Shown: positions 35,161-63,761, counted from the stretch's first letter. The stretch: 64,000 nucleotides of DNA from an uncultured Piscirickettsiaceae bacterium (GCA_964415865.1 CAYQBY010000003.1:3158-67157), one strand, 5' to 3'. Numbers and translations are program-made. The notes: generated by a model not told the origin, from the sequence alone.

Positions 35161-36587
35161 GGCTGCTCTCCCTATTTGTACTGCTCATCTTCTCCTCAAC
35201 CACATGGAGTGGCGAGCCTCTCAGGATTGTTACCACCATAAAACCAATTCATTCAATCCTCTCTGGTCTACTGGCAGGGACACGGCCTCCCGAACTACTT
35301 GTAGATAATCAGCAATCACCATATACAGTAACTCTCTCAAGATCCAAGCAACATACCATCAGGGATGCTGATATGGTCGTATGGGTGGGGCCAGAACTGG
35401 AGCAGTTTATGGTTAAGCAGATAGAACAGCTTGGCCCGAAGACAACCCTCTTTACCCTGCTTGATAATGAAGAGATCAAGGTTCTTCAGTCACGCTGGAA
35501 CAAGGGGAAACGTGATCCATTCTTATGGCTTGATAGCCGCAACATACTTATCCTTACTGATGAGCTTTTCAGAGCACTAATCAAGCTTGATCCAGAGCGC
35601 AGATCTCTATATGAAAATAACCGACGCAACCTGTTAAGCAGACTGGCAGAACTTGACCGCCGCCTGGAGTATGGATACAGAGGGCTGAAGAGCGGTATTG
35701 GCATGGCCTACTACGATACCTTGCAGTATTTTGAACAGGCATATGCACTAAAAATCAGGGGGGTGGTTGCAGAGTCACCAACAACACCAGTTAGTGGACT
35801 CTCTTTTCTACAGAGCAGGGCCAAACTCAAAAGTGGTGACTATAGCTGTCTGTTGACTGAACAGCAGATCGATCCTGATGACTTATCTCTGCTTACCAAT
35901 GAGATCACACTCAATATTGGTCTTTTGGACAGTTTTGGATCAAAAATAGATGCTGGAGAAGATCACTACTTCAAATTGATGGAGCAGAATACAGCTACTA
36001 TCAAACAGTGCTTAAAGTACGTGGATGATTCAATTGCAGAGGAGGTAGCAAAAGAGGTCATCCAAAACAGCACCAGTAATTCCACCACAACCAGCTATAT
36101 TGGTGGCAAGTTCATGTTACGTGATCATCACGGTAAACTATTTACCGACCAGGATATGCTGGGGGCATTCCATCTGGTCTACTTTGGATATACCTTCTGT
36201 CCTGATGTCTGCCCCACCTCACTACTCACCATCTCCTCAGCACTGAACAAACTTGGGGATGATGCCAAACAGATCCAGCCATACTTCATAACGGTTGACC
36301 CAGCCAGAGACAGACCAGAGGCGCTAAATACCTATGTTAACTATTTTCACCCGACCCTGATTGGACTAACTGGCACTCAGTCCATGATTGACCGGGTTGC
36401 CCGAATGTATCATGTGAAGTATGAGAAGGTTATTGACGAATCAAGAGACCCTGATCAATACATCATGGATCACTCATCAGGGGTTTTTGTGATGGCGCCC
36501 AGTGGAGAGTTCATAACTAAATTAGCTCACGGAATATCAGCTGATGATATGGCTGCCCGCATCAGAGATGTCCTGTCAAAACAATAG
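35157..36587 (+). CDS. Fusion protein: degenerate ZnuA/TroA-like periplasmic solute-binding domain plus a C-terminal SCO1/SenC copper-chaperone domain
   Basis: N-terminal TroA fold pattern with two canonical metal-binding His replaced (DPFLWLD for DPHxWLD; YDTLQYF for HDAFGYF); C-terminal CPDVCP CxxxC motif and conserved DHSSGVFV His. Confidence 0.65.
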   Translation: MRLLSLFVLLIFSSTTWSGEPLRIVTTIKPIHSILSGLLAGTRPPELLVDNQQSPYTVTLSRSKQHTIRDADMVVWVGPELEQFMVKQIEQLGPKTTLFTLLDNEEIKVLQSRWNKGKRDPFLWLDSRNILILTDELFRALIKLDPERRSLYENNRRNLLSRLAELDRRLEYGYRGLKSGIGMAYYDTLQYFEQAYALKIRGVVAESPTTPVSGLSFLQSRAKLKSGDYSCLLTEQQIDPDDLSLLTNEITLNIGLLDSFGSKIDAGEDHYFKLMEQNTATIKQCLKYVDDSIAEEVAKEVIQNSTSNSTTTSYIGGKFMLRDHHGKLFTDQDMLGAFHLVYFGYTFCPDVCPTSLLTISSALNKLGDDAKQIQPYFITVDPARDRPEALNTYVNYFHPTLIGLTGTQSMIDRVARMYHVKYEKVIDESRDPDQYIMDHSSGVFVMAPSGEFITKLAHGISADDMAARIRDVLSKQ

Positions 36588-41095: not shown

Positions 41096-41127
41096 GGATA
41101 GCTCCCCAGGCAATACAAATAAGTTAT

Positions 41128-41162
41128 ATAAAAAAGCCGGCACCTGATATGCAGGTGCCGGC
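41128..41162 (-). terminator. Rho-independent terminator downstream of nirS copy 1
   Basis: GCCGGCACCTG-atatg-CAGGTGCCGGC stem followed by a T-run on the minus strand. Confidence 0.75.
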
Positions 41163-42808: not shown

Positions 42809-42843
42809 AGTTCTCCTAAACAAAACAAAAAACCTCCTCTTGT

Positions 42844-42876
42844 AAAAAACCCCTTTAGCCAATCAGGTTAAAGGGG
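42844..42876 (-). terminator. Rho-independent terminator downstream of nirS copy 2
   Basis: CCCCTTTA-loop-TAAAGGGG stem followed by TTTTTT on the minus strand. Confidence 0.7.
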
Positions 42877-42885
42877 TCTCTTTTA

Positions 42886-44643
42886 TCAAGTTACGTGGTT
42901 AGTTCTACTGTAAACGTTGAACTTACCAGTTGGTGTGGTCAGTCCCTTGATACGAGCCTTCTCTTCAAGAGTGTCCGCATCATAGACTACGATCTCACCA
43001 GTTGGGTTACCGTTATCAGTACGGTTCCAGACAGAGACCCAGGCCTCACTTCCATCCTTGTTAAACTCAATATGGAGTGCCGCCTTACCCTTCTCTTCAG
43101 TTACACGGATGGTCTTAACGATCTCACCGGTCTCCTTGGAGATAACCTGTACAGACTGCTGGATCTCAGGCTCAGGATTCTTGACCTGATCTGCCCATAC
43201 GTACTTGGAGTTTGGATGAGTACGGATAAACGCACCTGCTCCATCAGTCTCGATCTCACGTACGATCTTCCACGCCTTGCTTGGTGTACCAGCTGGATCA
43301 TTACCCCATACGGTTACCATGCCTGTTCCCAGATGGACTGTAGCACCTACAGGACCATGCTTTGGATCATCCCAGTTTGCACCAGGACCAGGGTGTGGCT
43401 TCTTGCCAGTGGTATCAATCATCGCCTCAAGCTTGCGGGTCTTGGTATCAACTACAACCATCTTGTTGGATGCATTTGCCGCAATCTGGAAGTAACGTCC
43501 GGTTGGATCAAAGAATCCATCATGAAGATATTTAGCTGAATCAATCTTGGTGATTCGAAGATTCTCGATATCAGTGTAGTCAACCTGCCACATCTGTCCC
43601 AGCTCCTTGACCGCAACCAGGAAGGTTGGCTCGTTTGGAGTGGTGTAGACCGCAGCTACGCGTGACTCATTTACATATTCACCATCAACATTTACCCCGC
43701 GAGTGGATACTACCTTCAGCGGCTCCATGGTCTTGGCATCAGCAATTACGAAGTGTGGTGGCCAGTAGCCTCCACCAATTACATATTTACCGTCACCAGA
43801 GATTGCAACATCACGTGCATCGTATGCAATCTGGGTCTTGGCAACCAGCATGCTTCCTGGCTGTTGCCATAGATCGATCTTACTCATTACACCATCACGA
43901 CCCATTGTGTACCAGAAACGTCCGGCAACACCATTCTCTGGGTGCTCAGTCTCATGATGCTCAGTGGCCTTGATTACGTGTACTGCATAACCAGTATCAA
44001 TATGGTCGATAATCTCTTTGGTATCACCATCGATTACTGCTGCCTTACCGGCATCACGCTCGATTACTACGAAGAAGTTCTCCCAATTGCGGCCATGCAG
44101 TGGCTTGGTTGGATAGTCCTTAGGATCGACAAATACCTCTGTGCGCTCCTTCATCATAGCCAGTGACATCTCTGGTGGAACTGGTGGCTCCAACTGGATG
44201 TAGGTGGCCATCATTGAGATCTCTTCTTTACTGAAAATATCATCAAAGTTGTTCATTCCACCGTCTGTTCCGTAAGTCAGGATCTTCTCTAGACGCTCCT
44301 GACCTAGTTCACGAGTATTTTTTGGCTCCAGGCTCTTGCCTGTCGCTCCCTTTCTCAGTACACCGTGACAACCTGCACAGCGTTGGAAATAGAGCTTCTT
44401 GGAGTGCTCAAAATCCGCCTCTGATAGTGATGGTCCGGATGCAGCCACCTTGGCTGGTGCTGCTGGGGCTGGAGCAGGGGCTGGTGCCGCTGCTGGAGCT
44501 GGTGCTGGTGCTGGTGCTGGTGCTGCAGTTTTTGATGCACCTGAATCACCAGAGTCACCACACCCTGATAATCCCAGAGTCATGACTATTGCCAGACTCA
44601 GGGTTGCACCCTTCTTGAAACTCCTCTTCTTACCATCGATCAT
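42886..44643 (-). CDS. nirS: Cytochrome cd1 nitrite reductase NirS, copy 2, lipoprotein form with a Pro/Ala-rich linker
   Basis: Lipobox LGLSGC followed by (PA)n linker; then identical to copy 1 from SLSEADFEH to the C-terminus. Confidence 0.9.
   Translation of the reverse strand: MIDGKKRSFKKGATLSLAIVMTLGLSGCGDSGDSGASKTAAPAPAPAPAPAAAPAPAPAPAAPAKVAASGPSLSEADFEHSKKLYFQRCAGCHGVLRKGATGKSLEPKNTRELGQERLEKILTYGTDGGMNNFDDIFSKEEISMMATYIQLEPPVPPEMSLAMMKERTEVFVDPKDYPTKPLHGRNWENFFVVIERDAGKAAVIDGDTKEIIDHIDTGYAVHVIKATEHHETEHPENGVAGRFWYTMGRDGVMSKIDLWQQPGSMLVAKTQIAYDARDVAISGDGKYVIGGGYWPPHFVIADAKTMEPLKVVSTRGVNVDGEYVNESRVAAVYTTPNEPTFLVAVKELGQMWQVDYTDIENLRITKIDSAKYLHDGFFDPTGRYFQIAANASNKMVVVDTKTRKLEAMIDTTGKKPHPGPGANWDDPKHGPVGATVHLGTGMVTVWGNDPAGTPSKAWKIVREIETDGAGAFIRTHPNSKYVWADQVKNPEPEIQQSVQVISKETGEIVKTIRVTEEKGKAALHIEFNKDGSEAWVSVWNRTDNGNPTGEIVVYDADTLEEKARIKGLTTPTGKFNVYSRTNHVT
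42890..44433. repeat. Direct repeat unit B (1544 bp, identical to 41178..42721)
   Basis: As above. Confidence 0.95.
44458..44530. repeat. Simple-sequence repeat (GCTGGT/GCTGGG)n encoding the Pro-Ala linker of lipoprotein NirS
   Basis: gctggggctggagcaggggctggtgccgctgctggagctggtgctggtgctggtgctggtgctg. Confidence 0.85.
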
Positions 44644-52076: not shown

Positions 52077-53159
52077 CTATCTCATCCCGCGACGAGCAGC
52101 ATAGGTTACAAACAGGGTTATAGTAAAGAGTGCCACGGCACCTGCCTGATGAGTTGATGCCAGATGAATTGGAACAACCAACAACAGTGTACTAATTCCA
52201 AGAGCGACCTGTATCAGAACCATTACCATCAGTGCATTCATTCCGCTGCGGGCATATTTTGACAGCTCTACCTGTCGATATCGGAACCAGATAATTATGG
52301 TTGCTATCAATACGGTAATTGCCAACAGGCGGTGGTCAAACTGTACTGTAGTTCTGTTTTCAAAGATGTTGATCCAGAATGGGCTCTCCCTGAATAGTCC
52401 ATCAGGAATATACATTCCATTCATATCGGGGAAGGTATTGTAGCCATACCCTGCCTTGAGACCTGCAACAAACCCACCCGAAAGGATAGTGATTACAATC
52501 AGAAGAGTCAGCCAGCGTGACGTCCTGTATAGGTTGGCCGAGACCTCTCTCTCCATTCTAAATTTGGCATTGGGAAACAGATAGCCAAGCGCGGTCCAGA
52601 ACAGGTATGCATAGATAAGGAATGCTGCTGCAAGATGCGCAGTCAGACGGTACTGGCTGACATGAGGATTATCAATCAACCCGCTCTTGACCATATACCA
52701 ACCCAACACCCCCTGAAGACCACCAAGAATAAACATCAGAATAAACCGTGGAATGGCCGAACGCTGAATCTTGCCAGAGACCCAAAAGTAGATGAATGGC
52801 AACAGGAAGGCAAGGCCGATCAGGCGGCCCAAAACCCTGTGCAGATACTCCAGCAGGAAAATTGATTGAAAACCTGCCAGATCCATCCCCATATTGATTT
52901 TCTGGTACTCGGGGGATTGGCGATAGAGCTCAAAAACACGTTCCCACTCCAGCTGGGTCAGTGGCGGAATCCAACCCATTAGCGGATCCCAATCCACCAT
53001 TGAGAGGCCAGAGCCGGTCAGACGGGTAACTCCACCAAGCACCACCATTGCATAGATAAGAAGACAAACAGCAAGGAGCCAGATCCCGATCTGGCGATTG
53101 TGACTATATTCTGAAAGAGAGCTATACACTGCTATCTGTCTCCACAGCTTTCCTGTCAC
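52077..53159 (-). CDS. ctaA: Heme A synthase, COX15/CtaA type 2 (no Cys pairs)
   Basis: Eight TMs with conserved His (HRVLG, HLAAAF, HRLLAI). Confidence 0.75.
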   Translation of the reverse strand: MTGKLWRQIAVYSSLSEYSHNRQIGIWLLAVCLLIYAMVVLGGVTRLTGSGLSMVDWDPLMGWIPPLTQLEWERVFELYRQSPEYQKINMGMDLAGFQSIFLLEYLHRVLGRLIGLAFLLPFIYFWVSGKIQRSAIPRFILMFILGGLQGVLGWYMVKSGLIDNPHVSQYRLTAHLAAAFLIYAYLFWTALGYLFPNAKFRMEREVSANLYRTSRWLTLLIVITILSGGFVAGLKAGYGYNTFPDMNGMYIPDGLFRESPFWINIFENRTTVQFDHRLLAITVLIATIIIWFRYRQVELSKYARSGMNALMVMVLIQVALGISTLLLVVPIHLASTHQAGAVALFTITLFVTYAARRGMR

Positions 53160-54027
53160 CGGTCAGGGAAAAGTAGATCAGCAGAGCCGTTATCAGCAGT
53201 TGGGAGAATGTAGAGTGGAGCGATGTAGCAACCAGTGGAAGTTGCCCCTCAACCATGAAGCCACCAAGCTTGGTCTGTACAAACAGCAACAACAGCAAGA
53301 TCAATAGAAAGTTTCTCTGACCAGCATCCCCTCTCCTGAAGGCACGAAGCAGCATTACAGAAAAGTAGAGCAGTGCAACAAGAGCTGAGAACCTGTGCAT
53401 CATATGCATCTGTATTAGAGGGTTTTCTGACCACCAATATCCATTGCAGTCAGGCAGTGTTGTACAGGCCATCCCTGCAAATTTGGCAGAAACCATCCCA
53501 CCCTGCATTAACATGGTAAGCAGCAGCATGGCACCGGCTAGCATTACCGCCCTCTGTAGTGAAAACCGCTGCTCCCAACCAAAAACTCTAGCCATAAGCA
53601 GGGCAGATGCACCTAACAGAACCATTCCACCCAGAAGATTACCCATAACAACCCACAACTCAAGTGATCCACCTGCTGCTATCCCAAGTCCGGCTAGCCA
53701 CAATACGGCACCACCCATGACCACAGCGTACTGCCTTAATCTTGCAGCACCCTCTCCAGCACGAATCAGTACAATATTTACCAACAATACAAGTATGGCA
53801 ATAACACCAGCCAGGGTACGGTGGGCAATGGTTGCAAAGTGATATTCACCCTCAGCAACACCGGCAAAACCCTTGGCCTCACCAGTGACTCCAACCTCAC
53901 CATAACAGAGTGGCCGTTCCACACACTCCAGTCCGGACTTTACATGTCTGATATATGAGCTGGTGAAATTAAGGGTAACCACCAGCAGAACAGTTATTAC
54001 AACCAGATAGCGGATATTAAGCCCCAT
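53122..54027 (-). CDS. ctaA: Heme A synthase-like protein, CtaA type 1 (Cys pairs in loops)
   Basis: Eight TMs; CVERPLC and CTTLPDC loop cysteine pairs; His in TM2 and TM6. Confidence 0.65.
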   Translation of the reverse strand: MGLNIRYLVVITVLLVVTLNFTSSYIRHVKSGLECVERPLCYGEVGVTGEAKGFAGVAEGEYHFATIAHRTLAGVIAILVLLVNIVLIRAGEGAARLRQYAVVMGGAVLWLAGLGIAAGGSLELWVVMGNLLGGMVLLGASALLMARVFGWEQRFSLQRAVMLAGAMLLLTMLMQGGMVSAKFAGMACTTLPDCNGYWWSENPLIQMHMMHRFSALVALLYFSVMLLRAFRRGDAGQRNFLLILLLLLFVQTKLGGFMVEGQLPLVATSLHSTFSQLLITALLIYFSLTGDRKAVETDSSV

Positions 54028-54030
54028 CTG

Positions 54031-54711
54031 TTACTGCTCTCTTCGCTCTGGCCTCTCACCAAAGAGCTCATTTTTGTTGTCCTGAATATATGCGTCATCC
54101 ACCTTTCCAGCAACCAGGCGAATGTGTTTGGGATTCTTCTGCCAATCCACATGGTCGTAGCCCAACTTGAAGTCCCAGGCCCATGCACTTCCTCCCTGGA
54201 ATGCGTAAGTTGATGATGTCCAGTAGTCGGCAGAGTGTCCATTAGGGAAGAAATTACGAAAGATTGGGTCAATACTCCTGTCCTTGCTGATGAAGGCAAT
54301 TGATCCCATCTCTATATTCTCTGGCAGATGCCAATCCTTAAGCCCACAGATTCCCTCCTTGTTAACCTCTGTCACATAGGAGATCGCATCACAATCACTC
54401 CCTGCACAGCTGCCTCCATTAGGTACACCTATAAAATTCTCTCTCATCTCCGGGTCATACCAGGTATAAGTGTTGTCGGCAGAACGTAGCACGGCCGGCT
54501 CAGGCTTCTTTACCTCCCAGTGGAGACCTGTTGACTTGTCATATACACACTCCCAGGGGGCATCTGCATAATTGCCGCTACCGCTGTATACCGAGCCATC
54601 TGCAGTAACCCTGACAAAATTCTCCTCACGGATCTTTCTATCCTCGTCCGTGAGCCCTTCGCACCCCATCAAAAATAGTGGGAACAGGATCAAGCCTATT
54701 ACTTTCTTCAT
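54031..54711 (-). CDS. Lipoprotein with DUF1566 (Lcl C-terminal-like) domain
   Basis: Lipobox FLMGCEG; GLHWEV...DWHLPE motif pattern. Confidence 0.5.
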   Translation of the reverse strand: MKKVIGLILFPLFLMGCEGLTDEDRKIREENFVRVTADGSVYSGSGNYADAPWECVYDKSTGLHWEVKKPEPAVLRSADNTYTWYDPEMRENFIGVPNGGSCAGSDCDAISYVTEVNKEGICGLKDWHLPENIEMGSIAFISKDRSIDPIFRNFFPNGHSADYWTSSTYAFQGGSAWAWDFKLGYDHVDWQKNPKHIRLVAGKVDDAYIQDNKNELFGERPERREQ

Positions 54712-55125: not shown

Positions 55126-56481
55126 ATGAACAGACAACCAGATTACCAGCCCTCTGTCCCTGACTCCGTCCAGCCATTGATCCGAGGGTGGATCTATCTG
55201 GCACTGGCCTCACTCATCGTCCCCGGGCTGACAGCGGTACTTCTTGTATTGCTACGCACATTGGTAGTTGATTCGGCATCATGGACCGATCTGTTCCGTA
55301 CTGCACTGGTGGTACATGTCGACCTTTCTGTATTTGTCTGGTTTCTTGCTATCGGAGGGGCGCTGTGGACCAGCATGCTATCATCACCAACCACGGCTGC
55401 CAAATGGTCTCTCCGCCTGGCCGTAAGCGGAACAGTCATCATATCTGTTGCTCCACTACTGGGTGCAACCACACCGGTAATGAACAACTATATTCCAGTG
55501 CTTGACCATCCAATTTTTCATCTTGGTCTGGGTCTCTTTGCAGTTGGGATACTTCTTCTAGCTCCCTCCATCATGGGTCGATCACCCAGGCTCTTACCAG
55601 AGACTGGAGAGGAGCTAATACAACTTGGTGGATGGCTTGCGATGTTGGCAACAGTTATTGCAGCAATGGCCTTTATTCACACCTGGTTATCCATTCCTGT
55701 TGACCCGGAGAGGGCTGCTGTTACCTATTACGAGATTCTGTTCTGGTCTGATGGACATATTCTACAATTCACCTATACGACTCTACTGGTTGTTGCTTGG
55801 TTGGCATTGGGTTCTGCACTGAGGATCAACCCTGCCCCATCTCCAGGTATGACTGCAATCATGCTGGTTATCGGATTTATACCTCTAATTATTGTCCCCT
55901 GGATTCTCTCATCCTTTGGTGTCCTCTCGGCAGAATACAGGGGATGGTTTACCTGGCTAATGCGCTATGGCAACAGCCTGGCACCAGTACTTGTCTCTGT
56001 TGTGATTCTGGCAGGAGTGCTTCGCTCCAGGGCAATGACTGATGAACAGCGCCCTCTGCACGCATCACTGGTTGCATCATTTATCCTGTTTGCGGCTGGA
56101 GGTGTCATTGGCTTCATGATCTCCGGGATCAACACCATTATTCCTGCTCATTACCATGGCTCTATTGTCGGAGTCACATTAGCATTTATGGGGCTGGTCT
56201 ATATCTTGTTACCAAGGGTTGGTTTTGTGGCCCCAACCGGGCGCATGGCTATACTGCAGCCCTATGTGTATGCAGTGGGTCAGCTCATGCATGTTGCAGG
56301 ACTCGCAATGTCTGGTGGTCACGGAGCAGCTCGTAAGAGTGTCGGGGGCTCACTTGGAGTAGATGATTTTTATGGCACATTGAGTGTCGGCTTCACCCGT
56401 ATTGGCGGCCTGCTGGCCGTAGTTGGCGGGATACTATTTCTGGTGGTCTGCTGGAAATCAATTCGTGCCAAAAAAGGTTAG
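55126..56481 (+). CDS. 12-TM membrane protein, NnrS-like (putative heme/copper NO-stress protein)
   Basis: About 12 hydrophobic helices with scattered conserved His; denitrification context. Confidence 0.35.
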   Translation: MNRQPDYQPSVPDSVQPLIRGWIYLALASLIVPGLTAVLLVLLRTLVVDSASWTDLFRTALVVHVDLSVFVWFLAIGGALWTSMLSSPTTAAKWSLRLAVSGTVIISVAPLLGATTPVMNNYIPVLDHPIFHLGLGLFAVGILLLAPSIMGRSPRLLPETGEELIQLGGWLAMLATVIAAMAFIHTWLSIPVDPERAAVTYYEILFWSDGHILQFTYTTLLVVAWLALGSALRINPAPSPGMTAIMLVIGFIPLIIVPWILSSFGVLSAEYRGWFTWLMRYGNSLAPVLVSVVILAGVLRSRAMTDEQRPLHASLVASFILFAAGGVIGFMISGINTIIPAHYHGSIVGVTLAFMGLVYILLPRVGFVAPTGRMAILQPYVYAVGQLMHVAGLAMSGGHGAARKSVGGSLGVDDFYGTLSVGFTRIGGLLAVVGGILFLVVCWKSIRAKKG

Positions 56482-56792: not shown

Positions 56793-57137
56793 TTATCGGG
56801 GCTTTACCTTCACCCCATAACGCTTGTTGCTCTCGCACAGTGAGTTCTTGGAGCGCCAGCTACCATCCTCCTGGGTATAGCTTGTTTTAGGAACCTCTAC
56901 CTCACCACTCTTCTTGATCTCAAAAATGGTCACTTTGGCTGGATCAGGCTCACGTACCCTTATCAATCGCCCAAGACTACATAGGGTATCTGCATAGTAG
57001 TGGATGGTCATATCAGAGTAGAAGCCACCCTTGCAGTCCGTATCACAGTAGTCCTCATCCTTAAATATATCGACAACTGCCTTGTACGCATACATAGGGC
57101 AGCGTCTCTTCCCAAAAAAATTACTCAGTATCCCCAT
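56793..57137 (-). CDS. Hypothetical Cys-containing protein
   Basis: 114 aa; last gene of the minus-strand operon. Confidence 0.35.
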   Translation of the reverse strand: MGILSNFFGKRRCPMYAYKAVVDIFKDEDYCDTDCKGGFYSDMTIHYYADTLCSLGRLIRVREPDPAKVTIFEIKKSGEVEVPKTSYTQEDGSWRSKNSLCESNKRYGVKVKPR

Positions 57138-57167: not shown

Positions 57168-57671
57168 TTATTCAAAGATAAATTCTCCATGTTTTGCATC
57201 AAAATCCACCACTATGATCTCTGCTGGGGCCATATCAACATCTTCCTCAGCAATATAATCAAATTCATCACTATCTACGCTATCACGCATTTTCACCCCA
57301 AGCCTGTGTTTGCCTGATGGCACTGTTATCTTCTGATAAGTATATCCTGCAGCATCATTGTGCAGCCCTGAAGGTATGATGGTCTCAGAGTGTACTACCT
57401 CTCCATCAAGCTCCAACTCAAGAAAAATGGGGGAACGCTCTCTTGGACATACAACAGGCATCCGCATATTTGGTGGTAGCTTTGCTAACTGTTCCGGAGT
57501 CTGTTTCACACACTCCCCAGCTGGTTCACTGGTATGTGCCAGACTAATCTTGATCAATGCTGTATCCGCCCCCATGTGATTATATGATGGTGATGTAGAG
57601 AGGTAACCAACTACCGCCATGAACAGTCCATAAAGCACAACCTGACCGATTATCTGCATAACCTTGCTCAC
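57168..57671 (-). CDS. Membrane-anchored periplasmic protein, unknown
   Basis: N-terminal TM; 167 aa; ATGA-type overlap with the upstream gene. Confidence 0.4.
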   Translation of the reverse strand: MSKVMQIIGQVVLYGLFMAVVGYLSTSPSYNHMGADTALIKISLAHTSEPAGECVKQTPEQLAKLPPNMRMPVVCPRERSPIFLELELDGEVVHSETIIPSGLHNDAAGYTYQKITVPSGKHRLGVKMRDSVDSDEFDYIAEEDVDMAPAEIIVVDFDAKHGEFIFE

Positions 57672-59236
57672 TGTTTTACCTCCTCTTCACTACCCTCTCC
57701 ACTATCCTGCTCACCGCTATAACCATGCAGGTAGTCACGGAACTCTTTGATCTGTGAATCAAGTTGTTTTTGGTCGGGACTCTCGGCACGGAAAATACGG
57801 ATACGGTTACGATCAACTCGTGAGCGCAGTGCAGGCTTTCTGTCCTTATGAATCCTCTCATCAAGCCAGTGATTTCCAAGACGATAGTGGCAATTATTCT
57901 CCAGACAACCGGTAATAAATACACCGTCTGCATTACCACGTCTGAATGCATAATCAATGAATGAGGCTGGCAACATTCCTGTGCACGGAAGGGTAACTAC
58001 TGCTGTATCACCACCCTTGTATCTATCCAATTCAGCTGCGTGATCACAACCAAAGATGATAATACGGGTCTCACCATCCAATGCTCCAAGTTTGGTGTTG
58101 CACTCCTCACGCAACATATTGACTGACTCATGAGGCATATCAATACCGGTCACCAGTGGCTCCATCTTTCTGAATGGAGTTGATGATGGGCAGGAACCAG
58201 CACAGATTCCACAACTGGCACAGTAGCTATCATGTACTACTGCAACCTCATCATATGGGAGATCATCCGTTCTTGGCTCCATAGTGATTGCGCTATATGG
58301 GCAATCATCAACGCACTGACCACAACCGTTACACTCCTCCGGGAAGATCACGGCAACCGGCGGCTGCTTCTTCTTGGGGAACCATGGAAGAATAATCAAC
58401 AGGGCACTAACTGCCCAGACCAGAGACCATACCGCCCACATTGGCCAGCTATCAGCTAGTGGATAGATATTAAGATAGAACCAGTCAAGATTTATATCGG
58501 TTGGTACCGTATCAAGATTTGCCTGTTCGTGGCTCACCGCCGGCTTGTATAGTGAGAGTGCAACAAGGGCAACAAGCGTTCCAATAGCCAGACCACGTGG
58601 CGGATTAATAACCGAACGACTTATCCGTAGCAGGTGTATCCAGATCCCGAAGAGCAGGAATATTGGCAGACCGATAACGTGGATGAACGCAATCAGGGTA
58701 AAGAAGCGGTCATTCATATCATCACTGGTCAGGAAGTTCCTGGCCATCGGCTCAGTAAAGATTGGCAGCCAGTCCATCATCTCTGATGATGCGATTGCAA
58801 CATACTGAGCCATGGTATCCCATACCATCCAGTACCCAGAGATACCAAGCAGTGCTGTCATCCACAACAGTGGTACCCCGGAAAACCAGGAGAACCAGCG
58901 AAAGCTGCGGAACCTATCCAACACAAACTCACGGCTCAGGTGAAGGATGATGGTAATGATTGCGGCATCAGATGCATATCGATGGAGGCTGCGCATAATC
59001 CCGGCAGACCACCACAGCTCATTACTCATGTATTCCAGTGATGACCAAGCCCCAAATATACTGGACTCGTAAAGTACAAAAACATATATCCCACTTACCA
59101 GAACGATCCAGAATAGATATACGGTCAGGGCTCCAAGGTGGTAGATGGGGTTCAGCTCTTTGGTGAAAAATATATTGAACCATCCCTCCATCGTAGAGAC
59201 TACGGACTCTCTAACTTTTTGTATGTGATTATTCAT
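57668..59236 (-). CDS. Fusion protein: N-terminal diheme cytochrome b (bc-type Cytb_N-like) plus 2x[4Fe-4S] ferredoxin plus MvhD/FlpD-like Cys-rich domain
   Basis: TM helices with paired His (HLGALT, SLHRY...ILHLS, FIHVIG...IHLL); CNGCGQCVDDCP and CASCGICAGSCP; C-terminal FGCDH...LPCTG...TGCLENNCHY. Confidence 0.65.
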   Translation of the reverse strand: MNNHIQKVRESVVSTMEGWFNIFFTKELNPIYHLGALTVYLFWIVLVSGIYVFVLYESSIFGAWSSLEYMSNELWWSAGIMRSLHRYASDAAIITIILHLSREFVLDRFRSFRWFSWFSGVPLLWMTALLGISGYWMVWDTMAQYVAIASSEMMDWLPIFTEPMARNFLTSDDMNDRFFTLIAFIHVIGLPIFLLFGIWIHLLRISRSVINPPRGLAIGTLVALVALSLYKPAVSHEQANLDTVPTDINLDWFYLNIYPLADSWPMWAVWSLVWAVSALLIILPWFPKKKQPPVAVIFPEECNGCGQCVDDCPYSAITMEPRTDDLPYDEVAVVHDSYCASCGICAGSCPSSTPFRKMEPLVTGIDMPHESVNMLREECNTKLGALDGETRIIIFGCDHAAELDRYKGGDTAVVTLPCTGMLPASFIDYAFRRGNADGVFITGCLENNCHYRLGNHWLDERIHKDRKPALRSRVDRNRIRIFRAESPDQKQLDSQIKEFRDYLHGYSGEQDSGEGSEEEVKQ

Positions 59237-59324: not shown

Positions 59325-60149
59325 TTATTTGCGTCGATTGATTACAAACTCCTTGATCAGGAAATAGACTCCAATGGAAATAATCATGAAACCAATAAAC
59401 ATACTGACAAAAATCGAGTAATCAAACCTATAACCCCCGCTGGCAGGGTCATATACCGTACAGAAAAAGCGAACACGATCCTCTATGTTTGCAACAATTC
59501 CTCTATTAGTGGGCCGCTTGTAGACCAACTCCTTGAGTGGCTCCATAATCAGTGGCGCATCGTATGATTCCCCATATACCTGGGTATATATTTTGCCTTT
59601 TTGATCAACAACAGTGGCCTGCAGAATATGGTCAAAACCCTTGGTTGTTCTGATATAGGTAAAACCAACATCATTCATAAACCTTTCGACACTGCTGGCA
59701 TCCCCGCTCAAAAAATACCAGTTATCCAGATCAATTCTTCTTAATTTTGCATAATCCTCCATCATCTCTGGACTATCAATCATGGTGTCAAAACCGAGAG
59801 TGATGACATTAAATTTGTCAGAACCGAGTGATTCAGTGGCTATCTCGACCATCTTTTTAAGATGTTCGGTAGTCATCTGACAGATATGGTAACAACTGGT
59901 GTATACCAAATTAACTATTAACGGCTTATTGCGAAAACTTTCCAGGTGAACTGGCATCCCATTAATATCAGTGAATGTATAGTCTGATAGTATGTTACCA
60001 ACTGCCCCTCTGCTCTTTTCAAGTGCTGAGGCATGGTCAAAAACACCCTCCTCTACATCTGCAGAGAACGATATCTGGGAAATACCCAAAAGCAGAAAAA
60101 ACAGAGCTGCCGTAGAGAACCACAGACTGACATCTAGCCATTTATACAC
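59325..60149 (-). CDS. senC: SCO1/SenC copper chaperone with N- and C-terminal membrane segments
   Basis: CYHIC CxxxC motif; conserved FDHIL His. Confidence 0.75.
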   Translation of the reverse strand: MYKWLDVSLWFSTAALFFLLLGISQISFSADVEEGVFDHASALEKSRGAVGNILSDYTFTDINGMPVHLESFRNKPLIVNLVYTSCYHICQMTTEHLKKMVEIATESLGSDKFNVITLGFDTMIDSPEMMEDYAKLRRIDLDNWYFLSGDASSVERFMNDVGFTYIRTTKGFDHILQATVVDQKGKIYTQVYGESYDAPLIMEPLKELVYKRPTNRGIVANIEDRVRFFCTVYDPASGGYRFDYSIFVSMFIGFMIISIGVYFLIKEFVINRRK

Positions 60150-60175: not shown

Positions 60176-61048
60176 TCAGACCAGCTGAATATCAACAACA
60201 GCTGCAATCAACAGCAGTGTCAACTGAACAAGTGATGCGTAGAAACTAGACATTGCCGTATCCCGGTTGGTATCACGGATAAGTACAATGTTTTTATATA
60301 GGAAGTAGAAACCACCAACAGCTGCACCTGCAAAATAGACAAACCCAAGACCCAGATCAAAGAAAAATGGGGTGAATGAGGCACCCACAAGAAGTATTGA
60401 GTTACCAAAGATTGCCCATGCCGCTTTATGATCACCCACAACAACAGGAAGCATCGGAATCCCGCCACGAGCATAATCGTCATGCAGGGTTATCGCCAAA
60501 CTCCAGAAATGTGATGGTGTCCACAAGAAGAGGACAACAGCAAGAATCAGTGGAAATGTATCCAGTCCAGTTGGGTTTACTGTTGCAGCACCAGCCAGTA
60601 CAGCAAAGCTACCGGCAAGTCCGCCAATAACAATATTGAGCCAGGTTCTACGTTTCAACCACCATGTATAGACAAACGCGTAGAAAAAAGCACCAAGAAA
60701 AACATAGAATGCGGCCACACCATTCAGTATATAGGCAGCACCAAGAACAGATACAAACAATAGAGCATAGAGAAACAGTGGCCAACCAATGCCAGCCTTG
60801 ATCTCTCCTGTTACAAATGGACGATTGCGTGTTCTCTCCATTCGACCATCATAATTACGCTCAAGATACTGGTTAAACCCACCTGCACTTGCTGATGAGA
60901 GTAGAACAACCACCAATAACGTTAAGATCTGTGGTAGCGGGACAGATGGCCCTGGAGTAACGGCTAGTCCGACAAGTGCTGTAAGCGCAATTGTGACGCC
61001 AATACGTAACTTAAAGATATTTGCAATTTGCTTAAATCCAAGCACCAC
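60176..61048 (-). CDS. ctaB: Protoheme IX farnesyltransferase (heme O synthase)
   Basis: UbiA-superfamily motif (NQYLERNYDGRMERTRNRP); 8-9 TMs. Confidence 0.8.
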   Translation of the reverse strand: MVLGFKQIANIFKLRIGVTIALTALVGLAVTPGPSVPLPQILTLLVVVLLSSASAGGFNQYLERNYDGRMERTRNRPFVTGEIKAGIGWPLFLYALLFVSVLGAAYILNGVAAFYVFLGAFFYAFVYTWWLKRRTWLNIVIGGLAGSFAVLAGAATVNPTGLDTFPLILAVVLFLWTPSHFWSLAITLHDDYARGGIPMLPVVVGDHKAAWAIFGNSILLVGASFTPFFFDLGLGFVYFAGAAVGGFYFLYKNIVLIRDTNRDTAMSSFYASLVQLTLLLIAAVVDIQLV

Positions 61049-61116: not shown

Positions 61117-61152
61117 ATAAAAAACAGGGGCAGGCTCGAATGCCTGCCCCTG
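61117..61152 (-). terminator. Rho-independent terminator between HCO subunit I and ctaB
   Basis: CAGGGGCAGGC-tcgaat-GCCTGCCCCTG stem followed by a T-run on the minus strand. Confidence 0.7.
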
Positions 61153-61165
61153 AGTTTTGGTTCGC

Positions 61166-62902
61166 TTACGCAAGTCCCCAGACAGATGCCAGGTACTTCC
61201 AGTTAACGAAGTAGTAGAGAACAAAGGTAACAAGGAAGGCCAGTGCCAGAACGAATGTTCCTGGAGCAATGAACCATCCCATACCGATATTTGCATGTCC
61301 CTCATCAGCAGGGGCACGCATCAGCATTGCTGGTCTCTCTGTAGTGTAGCTGTCAAGACCACGGAATCCCATGAACCTAACCTTGCTATCTGTCTTCTTG
61401 CCGAAGAGCAGTGTACCTACTGTCAGCAGACAGAATATGGCTCCACCAAGGACCGCAAGAATCGCAAAGATACCGGCCAGACCCATGATGGTGTAGGCAA
61501 TTGCTGGGTACTCATAGGCATAAGGAGCACCAGTAAATGCCATGTCCCAATGTCTACGGGCAACACCCATGGTACCTGCTCCCATCAGGAAGAGGGAGAC
61601 ACCCGCCATTCCAAGACCAAACAGGTATGGTTGCAGTTTGGCAATTGATGGGAAGATAATCTCACGACCAAACAGGGTTGGTAACAGGAAGTAGGTAACA
61701 GACATGAACGCCATTGTTGTACCCAGTACCACCGTTGCGTGGAAGTGACCTGGTACGTAGATGGTATTATGGATGATCAGGTTGATCTGCTCCACACCCA
61801 TGACCACACCTGAGATACCACCCAGGAATCCAAAACCGATCAAGGAGATAAACATTGAGGAGAATACAGGATTACCCCAAGGTGCTTTCTTCAGCCACTG
61901 GAAGAGGCCACGATTGAGCCCTTTCATACGCTGAGCAACCTCAATTGATCCTGGAACAGTCAGTCCGTGAATCATACTAGCCAGTACAGCGAGGTACATT
62001 GCATAACTGGTGTTGAATACCTTCCAGACAGAACTCACACCTGGGTCAACCAAAATATGGTGAGCAGAAGCGAGCTGCAGGAAGAGGATGTACAACAGGA
62101 ATGCTGAACGACTGATCTTCTCGGACATTGGTTTTGCACCGAACAGTAGTGCTGCAACCATGTACCAGATTGAGATATGAGCGGCAACGTTGATCTGCTG
62201 TGAAGAGTGACCCAATGCCCACCAGATAACTCGATACATCAATGGATCAATATTTGAAATCAGCCCAAGAGACCAGAGGAATGTAGGAATCAGGATGATT
62301 GCACCAGATGCGATGGTAAAGACAGCAATAATTGCTGCAACAGTTGCACCAAATACAACCAGAGGAACTGATCCCTCATAAGTCTTCTCCTCTTTGGCAA
62401 TTACAAGCGTACCGAAGAAGATGAAACAACCGATCAGAGCACCAACAGCAAACAGAATAAGTCCCAGATAGAACAGAGGATCTGCTGGCATTGGTACATA
62501 AGAGGTCATCATCACGCTGGAGTTACCCATAATGATGGCGTAGTTAGTAATCAACGCACCAACAAGCATCAATCCAAACTGAACCCATCCCCACATTGGG
62601 GTTGCCAATCTCGAACGCAGTAGCGTCGATGAGGCAAAGTAGAGTACTGCCATCTCAAAGAAGATGATATAGATAATCAACATATCGATACCGTGACCAG
62701 TCAGTGCCTGATAGAACTGACCGGCTGGAAGTATATGCAATGTTGGCATACGTGTAGCCGTTACCAGCGCAGCAAGGATTCCACCAATAAGGAGGAATAC
62801 CGTAGCAGCAATAGCATTGGCCTTCATTAGATTTTCCGCATTCTTGTGAAAGACAAGCCCTGTGCCTGTCTCTGTACGGAATAGTGGTTTTGCAAAACTC
62901 AT
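61166..62902 (-). CDS. Heme-copper oxidoreductase subunit I lacking the cross-linked active-site Tyr (sNOR/B-family-like, putative NO reductase)
   Basis: Twelve-plus TMs; heme ligands (H in TM2, GHFHATVV in TM10); CuB/FeB His (WWALGH, AHHIL); GHSSQQ where A/B-type oxidases have GHPEVY. Confidence 0.75.
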   Translation of the reverse strand: MSFAKPLFRTETGTGLVFHKNAENLMKANAIAATVFLLIGGILAALVTATRMPTLHILPAGQFYQALTGHGIDMLIIYIIFFEMAVLYFASSTLLRSRLATPMWGWVQFGLMLVGALITNYAIIMGNSSVMMTSYVPMPADPLFYLGLILFAVGALIGCFIFFGTLVIAKEEKTYEGSVPLVVFGATVAAIIAVFTIASGAIILIPTFLWSLGLISNIDPLMYRVIWWALGHSSQQINVAAHISIWYMVAALLFGAKPMSEKISRSAFLLYILFLQLASAHHILVDPGVSSVWKVFNTSYAMYLAVLASMIHGLTVPGSIEVAQRMKGLNRGLFQWLKKAPWGNPVFSSMFISLIGFGFLGGISGVVMGVEQINLIIHNTIYVPGHFHATVVLGTTMAFMSVTYFLLPTLFGREIIFPSIAKLQPYLFGLGMAGVSLFLMGAGTMGVARRHWDMAFTGAPYAYEYPAIAYTIMGLAGIFAILAVLGGAIFCLLTVGTLLFGKKTDSKVRFMGFRGLDSYTTERPAMLMRAPADEGHANIGMGWFIAPGTFVLALAFLVTFVLYYFVNWKYLASVWGLA

Positions 62903-62915
62903 TATTAATTACCCC

Positions 62916-63458
62916 TTATTCTGTAACGTAAATTTTACTGGTCATGAAATGATGACCTACACCACAATACTCATTACAGATTATTGTGAACTCACCAGTC
63001 TGGTTTGGCGTAATTGTTATTACTGACTCATAACCTGGCAAAACCTGGGTATTTACATTGATTGGCTGTACAGAGAAGCCGTGCTGCCAGTCAATTGAGG
63101 AGAGATGCAGACGATATGACTCGTCCTTCTTTAGCTCCAGTGCTGGGTACCACTGCCACTTCTTGCCAAGCATGTAGACATCACTGCCAACAGGTGGTTT
63201 AACAACCGGAACATTCCACGCGGTCTCTCTACGCACTTCGTGTGCTGCAACCATGGCATCAACCTTTGCCTGAAACTTCTCAGGGGTAGTTTTATATGCC
63301 TCATTGGAAAGATTCTGGTTTCCATAGATGTGCCAGATAGGCATCATCGCAAACATAAACAGACACCAGATAAGTGCGATCGCAACCCATAGTCCCTCGG
63401 ACCGATCTACCGGAGTTTTCCACCAGATGGTTTCTGTTGGGGGTAGTATTGAACTCAT
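62916..63458 (-). CDS. Heme-copper oxidoreductase subunit II with a complete CuA site (ba3-like, single TM)
   Basis: H...CNEYCGVGHHFM CuA motif; 180 aa. Confidence 0.8.
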   Translation of the reverse strand: MSSILPPTETIWWKTPVDRSEGLWVAIALIWCLFMFAMMPIWHIYGNQNLSNEAYKTTPEKFQAKVDAMVAAHEVRRETAWNVPVVKPPVGSDVYMLGKKWQWYPALELKKDESYRLHLSSIDWQHGFSVQPINVNTQVLPGYESVITITPNQTGEFTIICNEYCGVGHHFMTSKIYVTE

Positions 63459-63761
63459 AACAGACTCTCCTCCTGAATTATGGGGCTATGGGGATAGAGA
63501 TGATCTCCATGATTCCCCACAAGGTATAGAAAACGGTTGGTACGGCTATTCCAAGAAATAGCAGCAAGAATGGGTTATCGAGCAAGCGCTGCATTGCAGG
63601 TACTCTCTCTTCTTCTTTAGTCTGTTCTTCCACTAGTTGACTCCCTCTGATGTTATAAAAAATATTAACTGATTAATTTGATCTATCTGCCCGCCACAAA
63701 GCGGATACAGATATACCGCAGGTTAGGCCAGCAATTTATACTCTTTAACCAACTATAGCTA

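Follow-up and report, generated by a model that had tools for sequence, protein, structure and literature searches.

A cytochrome b-iron-sulfur-MvhD protein that accompanies eNOR-type gene clusters, and its possible role as a transmembrane electron conduit

We examined why a membrane protein predicted to carry both hemes and iron-sulfur clusters is encoded beside an eNOR-type enzyme in a 64,000-nucleotide stretch of DNA (the window) from an uncultured Piscirickettsiaceae bacterium (GCA_964415865.1, CAYQBY010000003.1:3158-67157). As a source of N2O, eNOR has been validated recently and is abundant in the environment. Its defining paper listed 547 GTDB genomes and thousands of metagenome matches, discussed two subunits only and did not mention iron-sulfur or ferredoxin partners. 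The present gene (the target) offers a concrete candidate, open to genetic tests, for the way in which eNOR receives its electrons or is assembled, above all at low oxygen. We computed the architecture, ligands and topology of the target protein, its fusion to the domain of a neighbouring gene product (p167), its association with eNOR and the swapping of its modules.

The eNOR locus in the window

The window holds a full nar-nirS-eNOR denitrification island, in which the following features bear on the target:

52077-53159 and 53122-54027, minus strand: two adjacent heme A synthase (CtaA/Cox15) homologues
55126-56481, plus strand: 451-aa paralogue of eNOR subunit I (weak COX1 match; profile-profile alignment)
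57168-57671, minus strand: p167, 167 aa, one TM helix and a predicted periplasmic beta-sandwich, directly following the target
57668-59236, minus strand: target, 522 aa, cytochrome b6-like / 2x[4Fe-4S] / MvhD (xDWF-FeS clade), from ORF, Pfam/NCBIfam, conservation and model
58367-59236, minus strand: target residues 1-290, six-TM two-heme cytochrome b domain, helices A-F (PDB sequence match, model)
58181-58351, minus strand: target residues 296-352, predicted cytoplasmic 2x[4Fe-4S] ferredoxin domain (Fer4_7 and Fer4 matches)
57722-58069, minus strand: target residues 390-505, MvhD/FlpD-like domain (PF02662; MvhD chain matches)
59325-60149, minus strand: dedicated Sco/SenC (PF02630) with C86xxxC90 and H174, a second TM helix and, at the C-terminus, an additional conserved segment (C230)
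60176-61048, minus strand: heme o synthase CtaB (TIGR01473, 249 bits, above cut-off)
61125-61152, minus strand: terminator-like hairpin between eNOR subunit I and ctaB, 11-bp stem with 9 G-C pairs, then T6
61166-62902, minus strand: eNOR-type heme-copper (HCO) subunit I with G-H232-S-S-Q-Q236-I-N; H281H282, H386, H388 and H70 kept
62916-63458, minus strand: eNOR subunit II with a complete CuA site (H126, C161, C165, H169, M172; COX2 and CoxB matches)
63478-63633, minus strand: 51-aa single-TM protein (…LQRLLDNPFLLLFLGIAVP…YTLWG…), directly upstream of subunit II

The CuA subunit II, HCO subunit I, ctaB, senC and the target make up one gene string; Pfam and NCBIfam matches bear out the initial annotation, which had put the target together with a CuA-type heme-copper enzyme and senC. 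That annotation also called the operon sNOR-like, and here our analysis disagrees. The nearest PDB relative of subunit I is T. thermophilus ba3 (E 9e-48), and in the alignment to that enzyme Q236 falls on Tyr237; in place of the cross-linked active-site Tyr, the B-family-related subunit I of eNOR has Gln as its signature, and sNOR has Asn (Table A4, PMC8756737). Since Gln replaces the active-site Tyr, the neighbouring HCO is, on its sequence, of the eNOR type, and sNOR identity is ruled out. The GHSSQQIN motif does not vary among 66 orthologues and is also kept in distant phyla, and the CuA ligands of subunit II are invariant in 61 orthologues. eNOR has been described as having CuA in its subunit II, CtaA frequently in its operons, and heme As in both heme sites, with NO reduction without O2 reduction, for the R. 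marinus enzyme only (PMC11214002); the window locus has both the CuA-containing subunit and CtaA homologues (52077-54027). The 301-aa ORF of the latter matches PF02628, and the 360-aa ORF was assigned as CtaA-like by eye.

The target, ctaB and Sco all lie downstream of the terminator-like hairpin, which suggests that the target may be expressed less than the catalytic subunits. Hairpins with a T-rich tail comparable to that at 61125-61152 were found in 20 of 57 related loci. A search at ≤1 mismatch yielded no FNR/Dnr-type box upstream of the eNOR genes; perfect boxes occur elsewhere in the window, at 34727, 38283 and 44865. The 51-aa protein is a candidate small subunit of eNOR: it is conserved in distant phyla, and genes for 47-49 aa occupy the same position in loci L083, L087 and L088. 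The 451-aa paralogue, which also recurs in distant loci, aligns with eNOR subunit I with an HHalign probability of 99.85% (E 6e-31) and had no sequence matches in the PDB. Among 39 aligned sequences it keeps H64, H211 and H342-x-H344 and lacks the 'HH' metal ligands. It is probably the 'eNOR scaffold protein' of a 2026 preprint (bioRxiv 10.64898/2026.01.22.701106).

Architecture of the target protein and its family

The 522-aa ORF at 57668-59236 on the minus strand was recovered as initially described, and its proposed cytochrome b, Fer4 and FlpD parts all gave Pfam matches that exceed the curated cut-offs: Cytochrome_B (PF00033) at residues 24-206 (E 5e-15; 56.2 bits, cut-off 27.2), Cytochrom_B_N_2 at residues 93-213, Fer4_7 at residues 302-351 (E 1.7e-9) and FlpD (PF02662) at residues 411-503 (E 6.7e-16; 58.8 bits, cut-off 22.3). 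The top sequence match in the PDB is cytochrome b6 (E 2.5e-23). Ligand conservation was scored on 70 homologues of about 50% identity. The paired histidines noted initially are the (near-)invariant heme ligands H85-X13-H99 and H186-X14-H201, two bis-His sites in helices B and D whose spacing of 13 and 14 is that of the cytochrome b/b6 superfamily. Equally (near-)invariant are the eight Cys of two CxxCxxCxxxCP motifs (302/305/308/312 and 339/342/345/349) and Cys 397/418/444/449 of the MvhD part. The two motifs form a single 2x[4Fe-4S] domain that resembles the C-terminal ferredoxin domain of HdrA as well as polyferredoxins; the earlier term 'polyferredoxin' was right as to the two motifs and overstated as a name. 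The MvhD/FlpD-like domain (PF02662) has the FlpD fold and conserved Cys, of which C418, C444 and C449 have Cys counterparts in the alignment with solved MvhD; it is matched by MvhD chains 9sw2_D and 5odc_D, and presumably binds a predicted [2Fe-2S] cluster. The N-terminal CxxC strand of its FlpD is divergent. The succession of a Fer4 dicluster and MvhD is also that of the HdrA2 C-terminus (NCBIfam, E 7e-22).

The AlphaFold model of the target is confident (pLDDT 85.2, pTM 0.83); structural superposition matches it to bc1/b6f cytochrome b across about 290-310 columns and also to MvhD 5odc_D. In the model, the ef-loop on the periplasmic side carries L250-D-W-F-Y254 at the position of PEWY, the Qo motif; D251 and W252 are invariant in the 70 homologues. 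A 'PKKKQPP' stretch stands between helix F and the ferredoxin domain. Because the six helices match helices A-F of cytochrome b, the ef-loop is acidic and 'PKKKQPP' follows helix F, the Fe-S domains are predicted to face the cytoplasm, which settles, at the level of the model, the topology check that the initial annotation had proposed. The target thus shares with the cytochrome b of b6f/bc1 the bis-His ligands, the b6-type X13/X14 spacing, helices A-F and an ef-loop at the Qo position. However, the Cys of heme cn in cytochrome b6 is absent, with His33 at its position, the C-terminal half consists of helices E and F only, and cytoplasmic Fe-S domains are fused to it. Nor does it look like a part of a Rieske/cytochrome b complex: its motif is LDWF, conserved in D and W only and not of the canonical PEWY type, and in the contexts examined no Rieske or cytochrome c1/f gene was present among the annotated neighbours, an HCO being encoded instead.

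The initial annotation took this fusion to be novel. The architecture is in fact that of a widespread known family, whose function is only predicted: it was named the 'PDWF-FeS clade' of cytochrome b by Kao and Hunte in 2014 (Genome Biol Evol, PMC4122944), it is found in thousands of database proteins, and it is present in an eNOR operon of Ferrigenium described in 2026. The target shares the xDWF Qo motif and the 4Fe-4S and MvhD fusion of that clade, although its motif is LDWF rather than PDWF; xDWF[YF] occupies the Qo position in most family representatives. A sister form fused to ferredoxin and flavin oxidoreductase (Alicycliphilus) was reported in the same paper, and we recovered both forms. 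The 2014 description gave no function or genomic context for the clade, nor a link to eNOR, Sco or the p167 domain. What is new here is the near-obligate membership of the target gene in eNOR clusters, the recognition of p167 as the split-off C-terminal domain of the family, and the replacement of the cytoplasmic module by NAD(P)H-dependent FNR- or CPR-type modules in paralogues.

The family comprises at least 671 clusters at 50% identity from at least 592 species. A frameshifted fusion of two separate genes, raised initially as what might undo the finding, or a chance ORF, is ruled out by the thousands of full-length homologues with the same length and domain order; with all ligands invariant, a confident single-chain model and an identical protein on 46 contigs, the chance of an artefact is negligible.

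The start of p167 overlaps the stop of the target by 4 nt (GTGA). An HMM of its soluble domain detected a p167-type domain fused to the target-family protein in about half of the representatives (74/150). Since the domain is fused in these, p167 adjoins the target in 77 of 80 loci, and the pair stands alone in locus L028, p167 is the split-off C-terminal domain of the target. Its conserved residues are C54, C75-P-R-E-R79 and H46. A role as Rieske substitute or cofactor protein was considered and found no support, since the beta-sandwich is of a generic type and p167 conserves no more than two Cys and one His. Homology to the C-terminal domain of CcoG was likewise ruled against by Pfam, which gave no FixG_C signal among 68 members even at E ≤ 1.

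Co-occurrence with eNOR clusters

In 77 of 80 target loci the gene just upstream of the target encodes Sco; COX1 is present in 73 and CtaB in 59, and homologues of the 360-aa CtaA-like ORF occur in the flanks of 21. When loci were drawn independently via eNOR subunit I, 39 of the 41 adequate loci contained a target-family gene. Gene order is retained in Verrucomicrobiota-type and other distant genomes, and subunit I is of the Gln type in all of them. The recurring neighbours of the target are eNOR II/I, CtaB, Sco, p167 and the COX1-like paralogue; what travels with eNOR across phyla is the target with its beta-sandwich, a dedicated Sco, the subunit I paralogue without two metal ligands and the small TM protein. 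The target gene is a near-obligate accessory of eNOR-type clusters across phyla. The co-occurrence check proposed initially upheld the operon link, the type of the operon being eNOR and not sNOR-like. Minimal four-gene operons (COX2-COX1-Sco-target) exist with gaps of only about 10 nt, and in these neither CtaA nor CtaB adjoins the target gene. In one sub-clade the target gene is divergently upstream of the oxidase and does not adjoin Sco; in loci L084-86 it adjoins CtaA. The clusters often contain NO-responsive-type regulators or NO-related genes (Crp/Fnr, Rrf2, NnrS, hemerythrin, DUF2249).

One protein, P0386, in which Sco is fused to cytochrome b, was considered as Rosetta-stone evidence and set aside because it is a singleton, with 1 member on 1 contig. 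A Sco domain is missing from all of its 120 closest relatives, even from one at 94% identity, so the fusion is probably a frameshift or gene-calling artefact. In the literature searched we found no description of 'orf1' in the norSY-senC-orf1 string of ammonia oxidisers.

Thousands of family entries bear the database name 'hydrogenase iron-sulfur subunit'. This name misleads and could yield false hydrogen-metabolism calls in metagenome studies: Mvh and Hdr genes were absent from the annotated target contexts, so the family does not show the association with [NiFe]-hydrogenase or heterodisulfide reductase. Unlike the MvhD of Mvh-Hdr, that of the target has no hydrogenase, HdrABC or flavin partner in the contexts examined, and it is part of a membrane cytochrome of denitrifying bacteria. 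The target gene keeps so closely to the Gln-type enzyme that it could also be used as a marker of eNOR-type denitrification.

Possible routes of electrons through the target

The cytoplasmic module is interchangeable within the family. The same membrane domain is fused to Fer2-FAD-NAD in paralogues of Gallionella and Polaromonas, and to Flavodoxin-FAD-NAD in locus L082; these paralogues keep MRSLHRYASD, DWFYL and the same junction. Characterised members of both module types (BenC/MmoC/NqrF and CPR/CysJ) pass electrons from NAD(P)H onward. Since the interchangeable modules are NAD(P)H-type reductases, a cytoplasmic donor is indicated.

We tentatively propose, with a probability of roughly 40%, that the target acts as a conduit across the membrane, taking electrons from the cytoplasm to the periplasmic face for the Sco-dependent maturation or maintenance of eNOR; the direction of flow, the periplasmic acceptor and the maturation role are what we infer. 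Electrons would enter the Fe-S chain of the target in the cytoplasm (in the paralogues, NAD(P)H would feed them in directly through the FNR- or CPR-type modules), cross the membrane via heme bH and then heme bL, and be delivered around the xDWF loop and the beta-sandwich, p167 supplying the seventh helix of the family together with this beta-sandwich. They may serve the reductive building or upkeep of the metal centres of eNOR, with Sco/CuA thiols or Cu(II), possibly Fe(III), as acceptors. The placement of the gene after the hairpin with ctaB and Sco fits maturation at least as well as a respiratory role. Also on the side of maturation are the PCuAC-type (LpqE-like)-CtaG-Sco string that the CPR-type paralogue ends in L082, the CtaA gene beside the target in L084-86, and the Cu/thiol motif retained by the Sco of the window.

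A precedent of a general kind is offered by CcoG, which unites TM helices with two [4Fe-4S] clusters in the cytoplasm and an Ig-like domain at its periplasmic C-terminus, a plan that parallels the Fer4, TM and beta-sandwich parts of the target. CcoG/FixG and CrpH (PepSY_TM) are membrane redox proteins encoded with HCOs that aid oxidase assembly and function by metal reduction (PMC13038864). However, this likeness is functional and architectural only: the membrane domain of the target is a diheme cytochrome b without detectable homology to CcoG, p167 has no sequence similarity to the CcoG C-terminal domain, and neither protein matched a FixG_C or CcoG family in Pfam or NCBIfam. Other observations also weigh against maturation. 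A simple heme wire would not need the invariant D251-W252 Qo-like loop or helices E and F, which hint at quinone chemistry; near-obligate co-occurrence, including the minimal operons, would equally fit a catalytic partner; and a role tied to Sco sits uneasily with the sub-clade in which the target is away from Sco and with a sole Sco-cytochrome b fusion that is likely an artefact. We know of no direct precedent for a cytochrome b6-type protein that reduces a periplasmic thiol or copper chaperone via heme.

The main rival to the maturation role is catalytic electron supply to eNOR. SoxC, a cytochrome b homologue, is encoded with and works in a B-type heme-copper enzyme, the quinol oxidase SoxABCD of Sulfolobus, without a Rieske protein. 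By analogy, the target may be a Rieske-less 'complex III surrogate' that would oxidise quinol in its Qo-like pocket on the periplasmic side and pass the electrons to the CuA of eNOR; this reading comes nearest to the initial proposal and seems to us rather unlikely. It would account for the retention of the entire cytochrome b fold (helices C, cd, E and F, and the ef-loop with its invariant D-W at the PEWY position), for the near-obligate co-occurrence with eNOR even in minimal operons, and for an eNOR cluster that has no other conserved dedicated donor gene, and it is in keeping with weak NCBIfam similarities to SoxC (cyt_b_SoxC, 25.5 bits against a cut-off of 740) and ExtP/ExtQ and with the conclusion of Kao and Hunte (PMC4122944) that other complexes, too, can make use of a whole cytochrome b that has a Qo motif. 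However, SoxC has no Fe-S domains and its subunit II, SoxA, no CuA, whereas the target is Fe-S-fused and the subunit II of the window has CuA. Neither a Rieske protein nor another acceptor of high potential is encoded, p167 being a cofactor-less generic beta-sandwich; three cytoplasmic Fe-S clusters, and the NAD(P)H-type modules that replace them, would be left without a role; the intact CuA could accept electrons from an ordinary cytochrome c or cupredoxin, such as the one encoded beside nirS in L084; and the hairpin suggests expression below that of the catalytic subunits. The general idea of the initial annotation, a link from a redox pool to the oxidoreductase, is kept, whereas quinol input, possible via the xDWF loop, gives way to the cytoplasmic donor favoured by the swapped modules. 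Such a donor, at the level of ferredoxin or NAD(P)H, might also supply catalysis itself by way of the b hemes and CuA, driving NO reduction as a non-energy-conserving detoxification with a NOX/Fre-like logic. The topology and module swapping speak for this as they do for the conduit, and the frequency of Crp/Fnr, Rrf2, NnrS, hemerythrin and DUF2249 genes in the clusters agrees with it; nevertheless we think it quite improbable. Sulfur- and iron-oxidising autotrophs obtain NAD(P)H and ferredoxin by reverse electron flow, and from established bioenergetics this expense would be costly for them; the island is of the nar-nirS-eNOR kind, in which NOR is normally fed by the cytochrome c pool; and the target gene is surrounded by assembly genes.

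Mitochondrial Cox15 is supported by a ferredoxin (Yah1) and a ferredoxin reductase (Arh1), a pair mirrored by the Fer2-FNR paralogue, and the target could similarly feed electrons to CtaA for heme A(s) synthesis. With heme As in both eNOR sites and CtaA in many eNOR operons (PMC11214002), with ctaB two genes upstream and two CtaA homologues 3.5 kb downstream of the target in the window, and with CtaA adjoining it in L084-86, this reading has its attractions, but it is very unlikely, as the linkage of CtaA (21/80) and CtaB (59/80) is looser than that of Sco and p167 (77/80 each), the minimal operons have neither gene beside the target, and the periplasmic beta-sandwich and Qo-like loop would have no obvious role.

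MvhD domains are best known from the electron-bifurcating Mvh-Hdr complexes, and solved Mvh-Hdr chains are the closest matches to that of the target. We see a slim chance that the target, its beta-sandwich, Sco and eNOR form a Rieske-less supercomplex in which quinol at the xDWF site is bifurcated, one electron going to eNOR and NO and the other via bL, bH and the Fe-S clusters to NAD(P)+ or ferredoxin. The conserved Qo-like loop, the NAD(P)-binding modules of the paralogues, the very high potential of the NO/N2O couple and the hosts, often chemolithoautotrophs in need of reverse electron flow, would suit such a scheme; if it holds, NO respiration would directly power reverse electron flow in these organisms. 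However, if the quinone is ubiquinone and the b hemes are ordinary, electrons of the low-potential branch would have to be pushed uphill to about -320 mV against the membrane potential; a flavin or other centre for bifurcation is absent from the target, and no first acceptor of high potential was identified; and to our knowledge CPR-type modules do not physiologically run in reverse.

A quinol:NAD+ oxidoreductase supercomplex has been proposed in the 2026 preprint (bioRxiv 10.64898/2026.01.22.701106) that covers Ferrigenium straubiae, whose eNOR operon, like the window, encodes eNOR II, eNOR I, heme o synthase, sco1 and the 'scaffold' protein. It has two cytochrome b forms (genes 2878407319 and 2878407323), one with Fe-S, FAD and NADH domains and one with Fe-S, whereas the window has the Fe-S/MvhD form only. 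The preprint treats these genes as 'rather unusual' and marker-like for Ferrigenium; in our loci the cytochrome b-Fe-S-MvhD form is near-universal in eNOR clusters across phyla. Proteomics under conditions of nitrate reduction and Fe(II) oxidation detected all proteins of that operon, and a Gallionella locus of our set (L064) has the same layout.

Domain architecture and family of the fusion protein

The protein under study had been annotated initially as a novel fusion of cytochrome b, polyferredoxin and MvhD-like domains.

57668-59236, minus strand: target open reading frame, 522 residues

Pfam matches above the curated cut-offs bear out this combination: Cytochrome_B (residues 24-206, E 5e-15), Cytochrom_B_N_2 (93-213), Fer4_7, a 4Fe-4S dicluster domain (302-351, E 1.7e-9), and FlpD/MvhD (411-503, E 6.7e-16). 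The Fe-S domain is present, but "polyferredoxin" is too strong a term for one two-cluster domain. Below the NCBIfam equivalog cut-offs, the target resembles the b-type cytochrome ExtP and cytochrome b6, the membrane protein ExtQ (220-301) and the C-terminal Fer4 plus MvhD part of HdrA2 (291-505, E 7e-22). Among 25 and then 70 aligned homologues (~50% identity), the paired heme histidines of the initial annotation (H85-X13-H99 and H186-X14-H201), eight cysteines in two CxxCxxCxxxCP motifs and four cysteines of the MvhD part are all invariant or nearly so. Cysteines of solved MvhD chains align with three of the target's MvhD cysteines.

AlphaFold models the protein with confidence (pLDDT 85.2, pTM 0.83), and the predicted helices match those of cytochrome b: A, B, C, cd, D, E, ef and F. 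Foldseek matched bc1 cytochrome b over ~290-310 columns, cytochrome b6 over ~180 and, at the C-terminus, MvhD (5odc_D); it found no solved chain matching the whole length. Because the protein has six helices and is homologous to cytochrome b, whose N-terminus is on the cytoplasmic side, the Fe-S and MvhD domains are predicted to be cytoplasmic and the xDWF loop periplasmic; the initial annotation had asked for this sidedness to be checked. Where PEWY would stand, that loop (235-267) has L250-D-W-F-Y254; it contains five acidic and no basic residues, and PKKKQPP follows helix F. The heme cn-binding cysteine of b6 is replaced by a non-conserved histidine.

A word-indexed search gave more than 6,000 matches. 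The best 120 of these are all 510-570 aa long with the same Pfam set, and relatives occur in at least 592 species-level genomes, which belong chiefly to Gamma-, Alpha- and Betaproteobacteria and Magnetococcales; an artefact is therefore ruled out. An exhaustive profile search (E <= 1e-30) yielded 671 clusters at 50% identity. The target itself was found on 46 contigs, and a Candidatus Thiopontia autotrophica protein falls in its 90%-identity cluster. Relatives are named "hydrogenase iron-sulfur subunit" or [quoted passage not shown] in the databases. Nor is the architecture novel, as it was published as the PDWF-FeS clade of cytochrome b by Kao & Hunte in 2014, together with an Alicycliphilus cytochrome b fused to ferredoxin and flavin oxidoreductase (PMC4122944). 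It was also reported in the operon for eNOR, the Gln-type nitric-oxide reductase, of Ferrigenium straubiae in 2026. Two genes of that operon are listed as "cytochrome b and [Fe-S]" and as "cytochrome b, [Fe-S], FAD, NADH", both are called unusual, and a quinol:NAD+ oxidoreductase supercomplex was proposed (10.64898/2026.01.22.701106). A further variant with an additional cytochrome c domain is in the domain table of PMC8756737. The target is a typical representative of a family that has already been catalogued and whose function is only predicted. Its near-obligate eNOR link, the encoding of its seventh helix and periplasmic domain by a separate gene, and its swappable cytoplasmic modules are apparently undescribed in the literature examined, and jointly they pose a clear experimental question.

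Linkage to the nitric-oxide reductase eNOR

61166-62902: eNOR subunit I, nearest to T. thermophilus ba3 (E 9e-48)
61152-61125, minus strand: terminator-like hairpin after subunit I and before ctaB, with an 11-bp stem (nine G-C pairs), then T6

Every heme and metal histidine ligand of subunit I aligns with ba3, and the position of ba3 Tyr237 is occupied by Gln236 (H-S-S-Q-Q vs. H-P-I-V-Y). All 66 aligned orthologues have GHSSQQIN unchanged, and this motif is found again in distant phyla; in subunit II the CuA site is complete. An active-site Gln distinguishes eNOR from the Asn-type sNOR, and this "conserved glutamine substitution" is "characteristic of the eNOR subfamily" (PMC8756737), so the operon had been misclassified as sNOR-like. 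In Gallionella, the gene content of the operon at L064 is one that two papers assign to eNOR. The eNOR of R. marinus has been verified to reduce NO but not O2 and has heme As in both sites, and CtaA is present in many eNOR operons (PMC11214002).

We compared the neighbouring proteins in the window with 80 genome loci found through the target. Sco/SenC lies directly upstream and p167, a 167-aa protein, directly downstream in 77/80 loci each; eNOR subunit I was present in 73, subunit II in 61, CtaB in 59 and CtaA, within the flanks, in 21, the shortfalls being mostly due to contig ends. In distant members the order COX2-COX1-Sco-target is preserved, the genes being ~10 nt apart. In the reverse test, 80 metagenome loci were sampled through eNOR subunit I, and 39 of the 41 with at least 3.5 kb downstream contained the target gene; the two exceptions have just ~1 kb of upstream sequence each. 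The gene usually comes right after Sco, and in one sub-clade lies ~3 kb upstream on the opposite strand. It is thus linked near-obligately to eNOR clusters, and the eNOR-defining paper makes no mention of ferredoxin or iron-sulfur.

The hairpin is strong and bidirectional, and similar ones with T-rich tails and unrelated sequences follow subunit I in 20/57 related loci. Given its position, the target may be transcribed with ctaB and Sco below the level of the catalytic subunits. Minimal operons of other phyla are without this spacing.

Split form, interchangeable modules and possible function

57168..57671, minus strand: p167, overlapping the target stop codon by 4 nt

The p167 model, a confident one (pLDDT 93.2), shows one transmembrane helix and a beta-sandwich, and H46, C54 and C75-P-R-E-R79 are conserved. 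It has no Pfam family and, by Pfam, no similarity to the CcoG C-terminal domain. Since this domain is fused at the C-terminus behind an extra transmembrane helix in 74 of the 150 best family representatives, and in 71 of the 84 representatives with at least 620 aa, target and p167 together are the split form of a seven-helix protein with a periplasmic last domain. In Magnetococcus (L028) the pair stands apart from any oxidase. Thioalkalivibrio denitrificans ALJD, a cultured denitrifier that might be suited to genetics, has two tandem copies (L012 8001-12784): the target and p167 are accompanied by another cytochrome b-Fer4-FlpD paralogue of 513 aa and by an additional Sco.

The cytoplasmic part is interchangeable. 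After Sco, Gallionella and Polaromonas encode a target-type membrane domain that is instead fused to Fer2-FAD_binding_6-NAD_binding_1 (646 aa at L064 3716-5656), with MRSLHRYASD and DWFYL kept and the junction after helix F unchanged. Another locus (L082 9001-12798) has a PCuAC-type (LpqE-like)-CtaG-Sco string that ends with an 827-aa paralogue, followed by NnrS; here the same b6-like membrane domain carries a CPR/CysJ-type diflavin module (Flavodoxin_1-FAD_binding_1-NAD_binding_1). Fer2-FNR (BenC, MmoC, NqrF) and CPR/CysJ modules are NAD(P)H-oxidising electron donors, and these swaps, the best available pointer to direction, therefore suggest electron flow from the cytoplasm to the b hemes.

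Ligands, topology, p167 fusion, eNOR association and module swapping are established computationally; the electron route is inferred. Electrons would enter through the cytoplasmic Fe-S chain, cross the membrane through bH and bL and be spent at the periplasmic face. We tentatively favor, with a probability of about 0.4, a role in reductive maturation or maintenance of the eNOR metal centres via the dedicated Sco. The gene sits among cofactor-insertion genes, paralogues are of the NAD(P)H type, a low-potential reductant would be costly for respiration in autotrophs, and CcoG and CrpH are precedents (PMC13038864). Quinol oxidation feeding the CuA of eNOR has support from conservation of the Qo-like loop and from the close co-occurrence with eNOR, yet we regard it as rather unlikely. 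A catalytic supply of cytoplasmic electrons to eNOR seems distinctly unlikely, and delivery to heme A synthase, whose gene ctaA was within the flanks of about a quarter of the loci, is quite improbable. Least probable of these would be quinone-based bifurcation toward NAD(P)+ or ferredoxin.

Other features of the denitrification island

The window is a denitrification island with narGH, two nirS, a NirT-like fusion, heme d1 genes and two CtaA homologues, then the eNOR cluster. The cluster's Sco/SenC (59325-60149, minus) has the usual CxxxC+His motif. Unusually for Sco, its C-terminus is extended by a conserved segment (C230, "fCT.YDp....Y.fDyS") and it has a second transmembrane helix (246-264). 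An apparent Sco-cytochrome b-Fer4 fusion (P0386, L081 294-2324) is a singleton on a 6-kb metagenome contig, absent from its closest relatives, and is probably a frameshift or gene-calling artefact. At 55126-56481 (plus) lies a 451-aa subunit I paralogue (HHalign 99.85%, E 6e-31) in which the low-spin heme His, the first metal-B His and the helix-X H-x-H are retained but not the "HH" ligand pair. Copies sit beside eNOR clusters of several phyla, and it is probably this protein that the 2026 preprint calls "eNOR scaffold protein of unknown function". Immediately upstream of subunit II, a 51-aa single-helix ORF (63478-63633, minus) has a core (LQRLLDNPFLLLFLG…YTLWG) that is conserved in distant loci, including Verrucomicrobiota-type ones (L083 5245-5391, L088 5531-5674); it is a candidate for a small third subunit comparable to IIa of the ba3 oxidases. 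A putative 226-aa lipoprotein with an Lcl_C (PF07603) domain (54031-54711, minus) has homologues beside eNOR clusters in 19/80 loci, usually divergent and upstream of subunit II. Downstream of p167, a basic 114-aa ORF (56793-57137, minus) without a family match is restricted to L001-L004, the four closest relatives.

Two adjacent heme A synthase homologues of 360 and 301 aa (52077-54027, minus) overlap by 38 nt, the shorter being confined to the closest relatives. The tandem nirS genes (41174-42862 and 42886-44643, minus) are followed downstream by a NapC/NirT tetraheme-EB_dh fusion (39404-41143, minus), which also adjoins nirS in L084-86. Finally, a 476-aa protein (35157-36587, plus) joins a ZnuA-type periplasmic metal-binding domain to a SCO1/SenC domain, and a perfect FNR-type box (TTGATCTGAATCAA) lies upstream of its gene at 34727.
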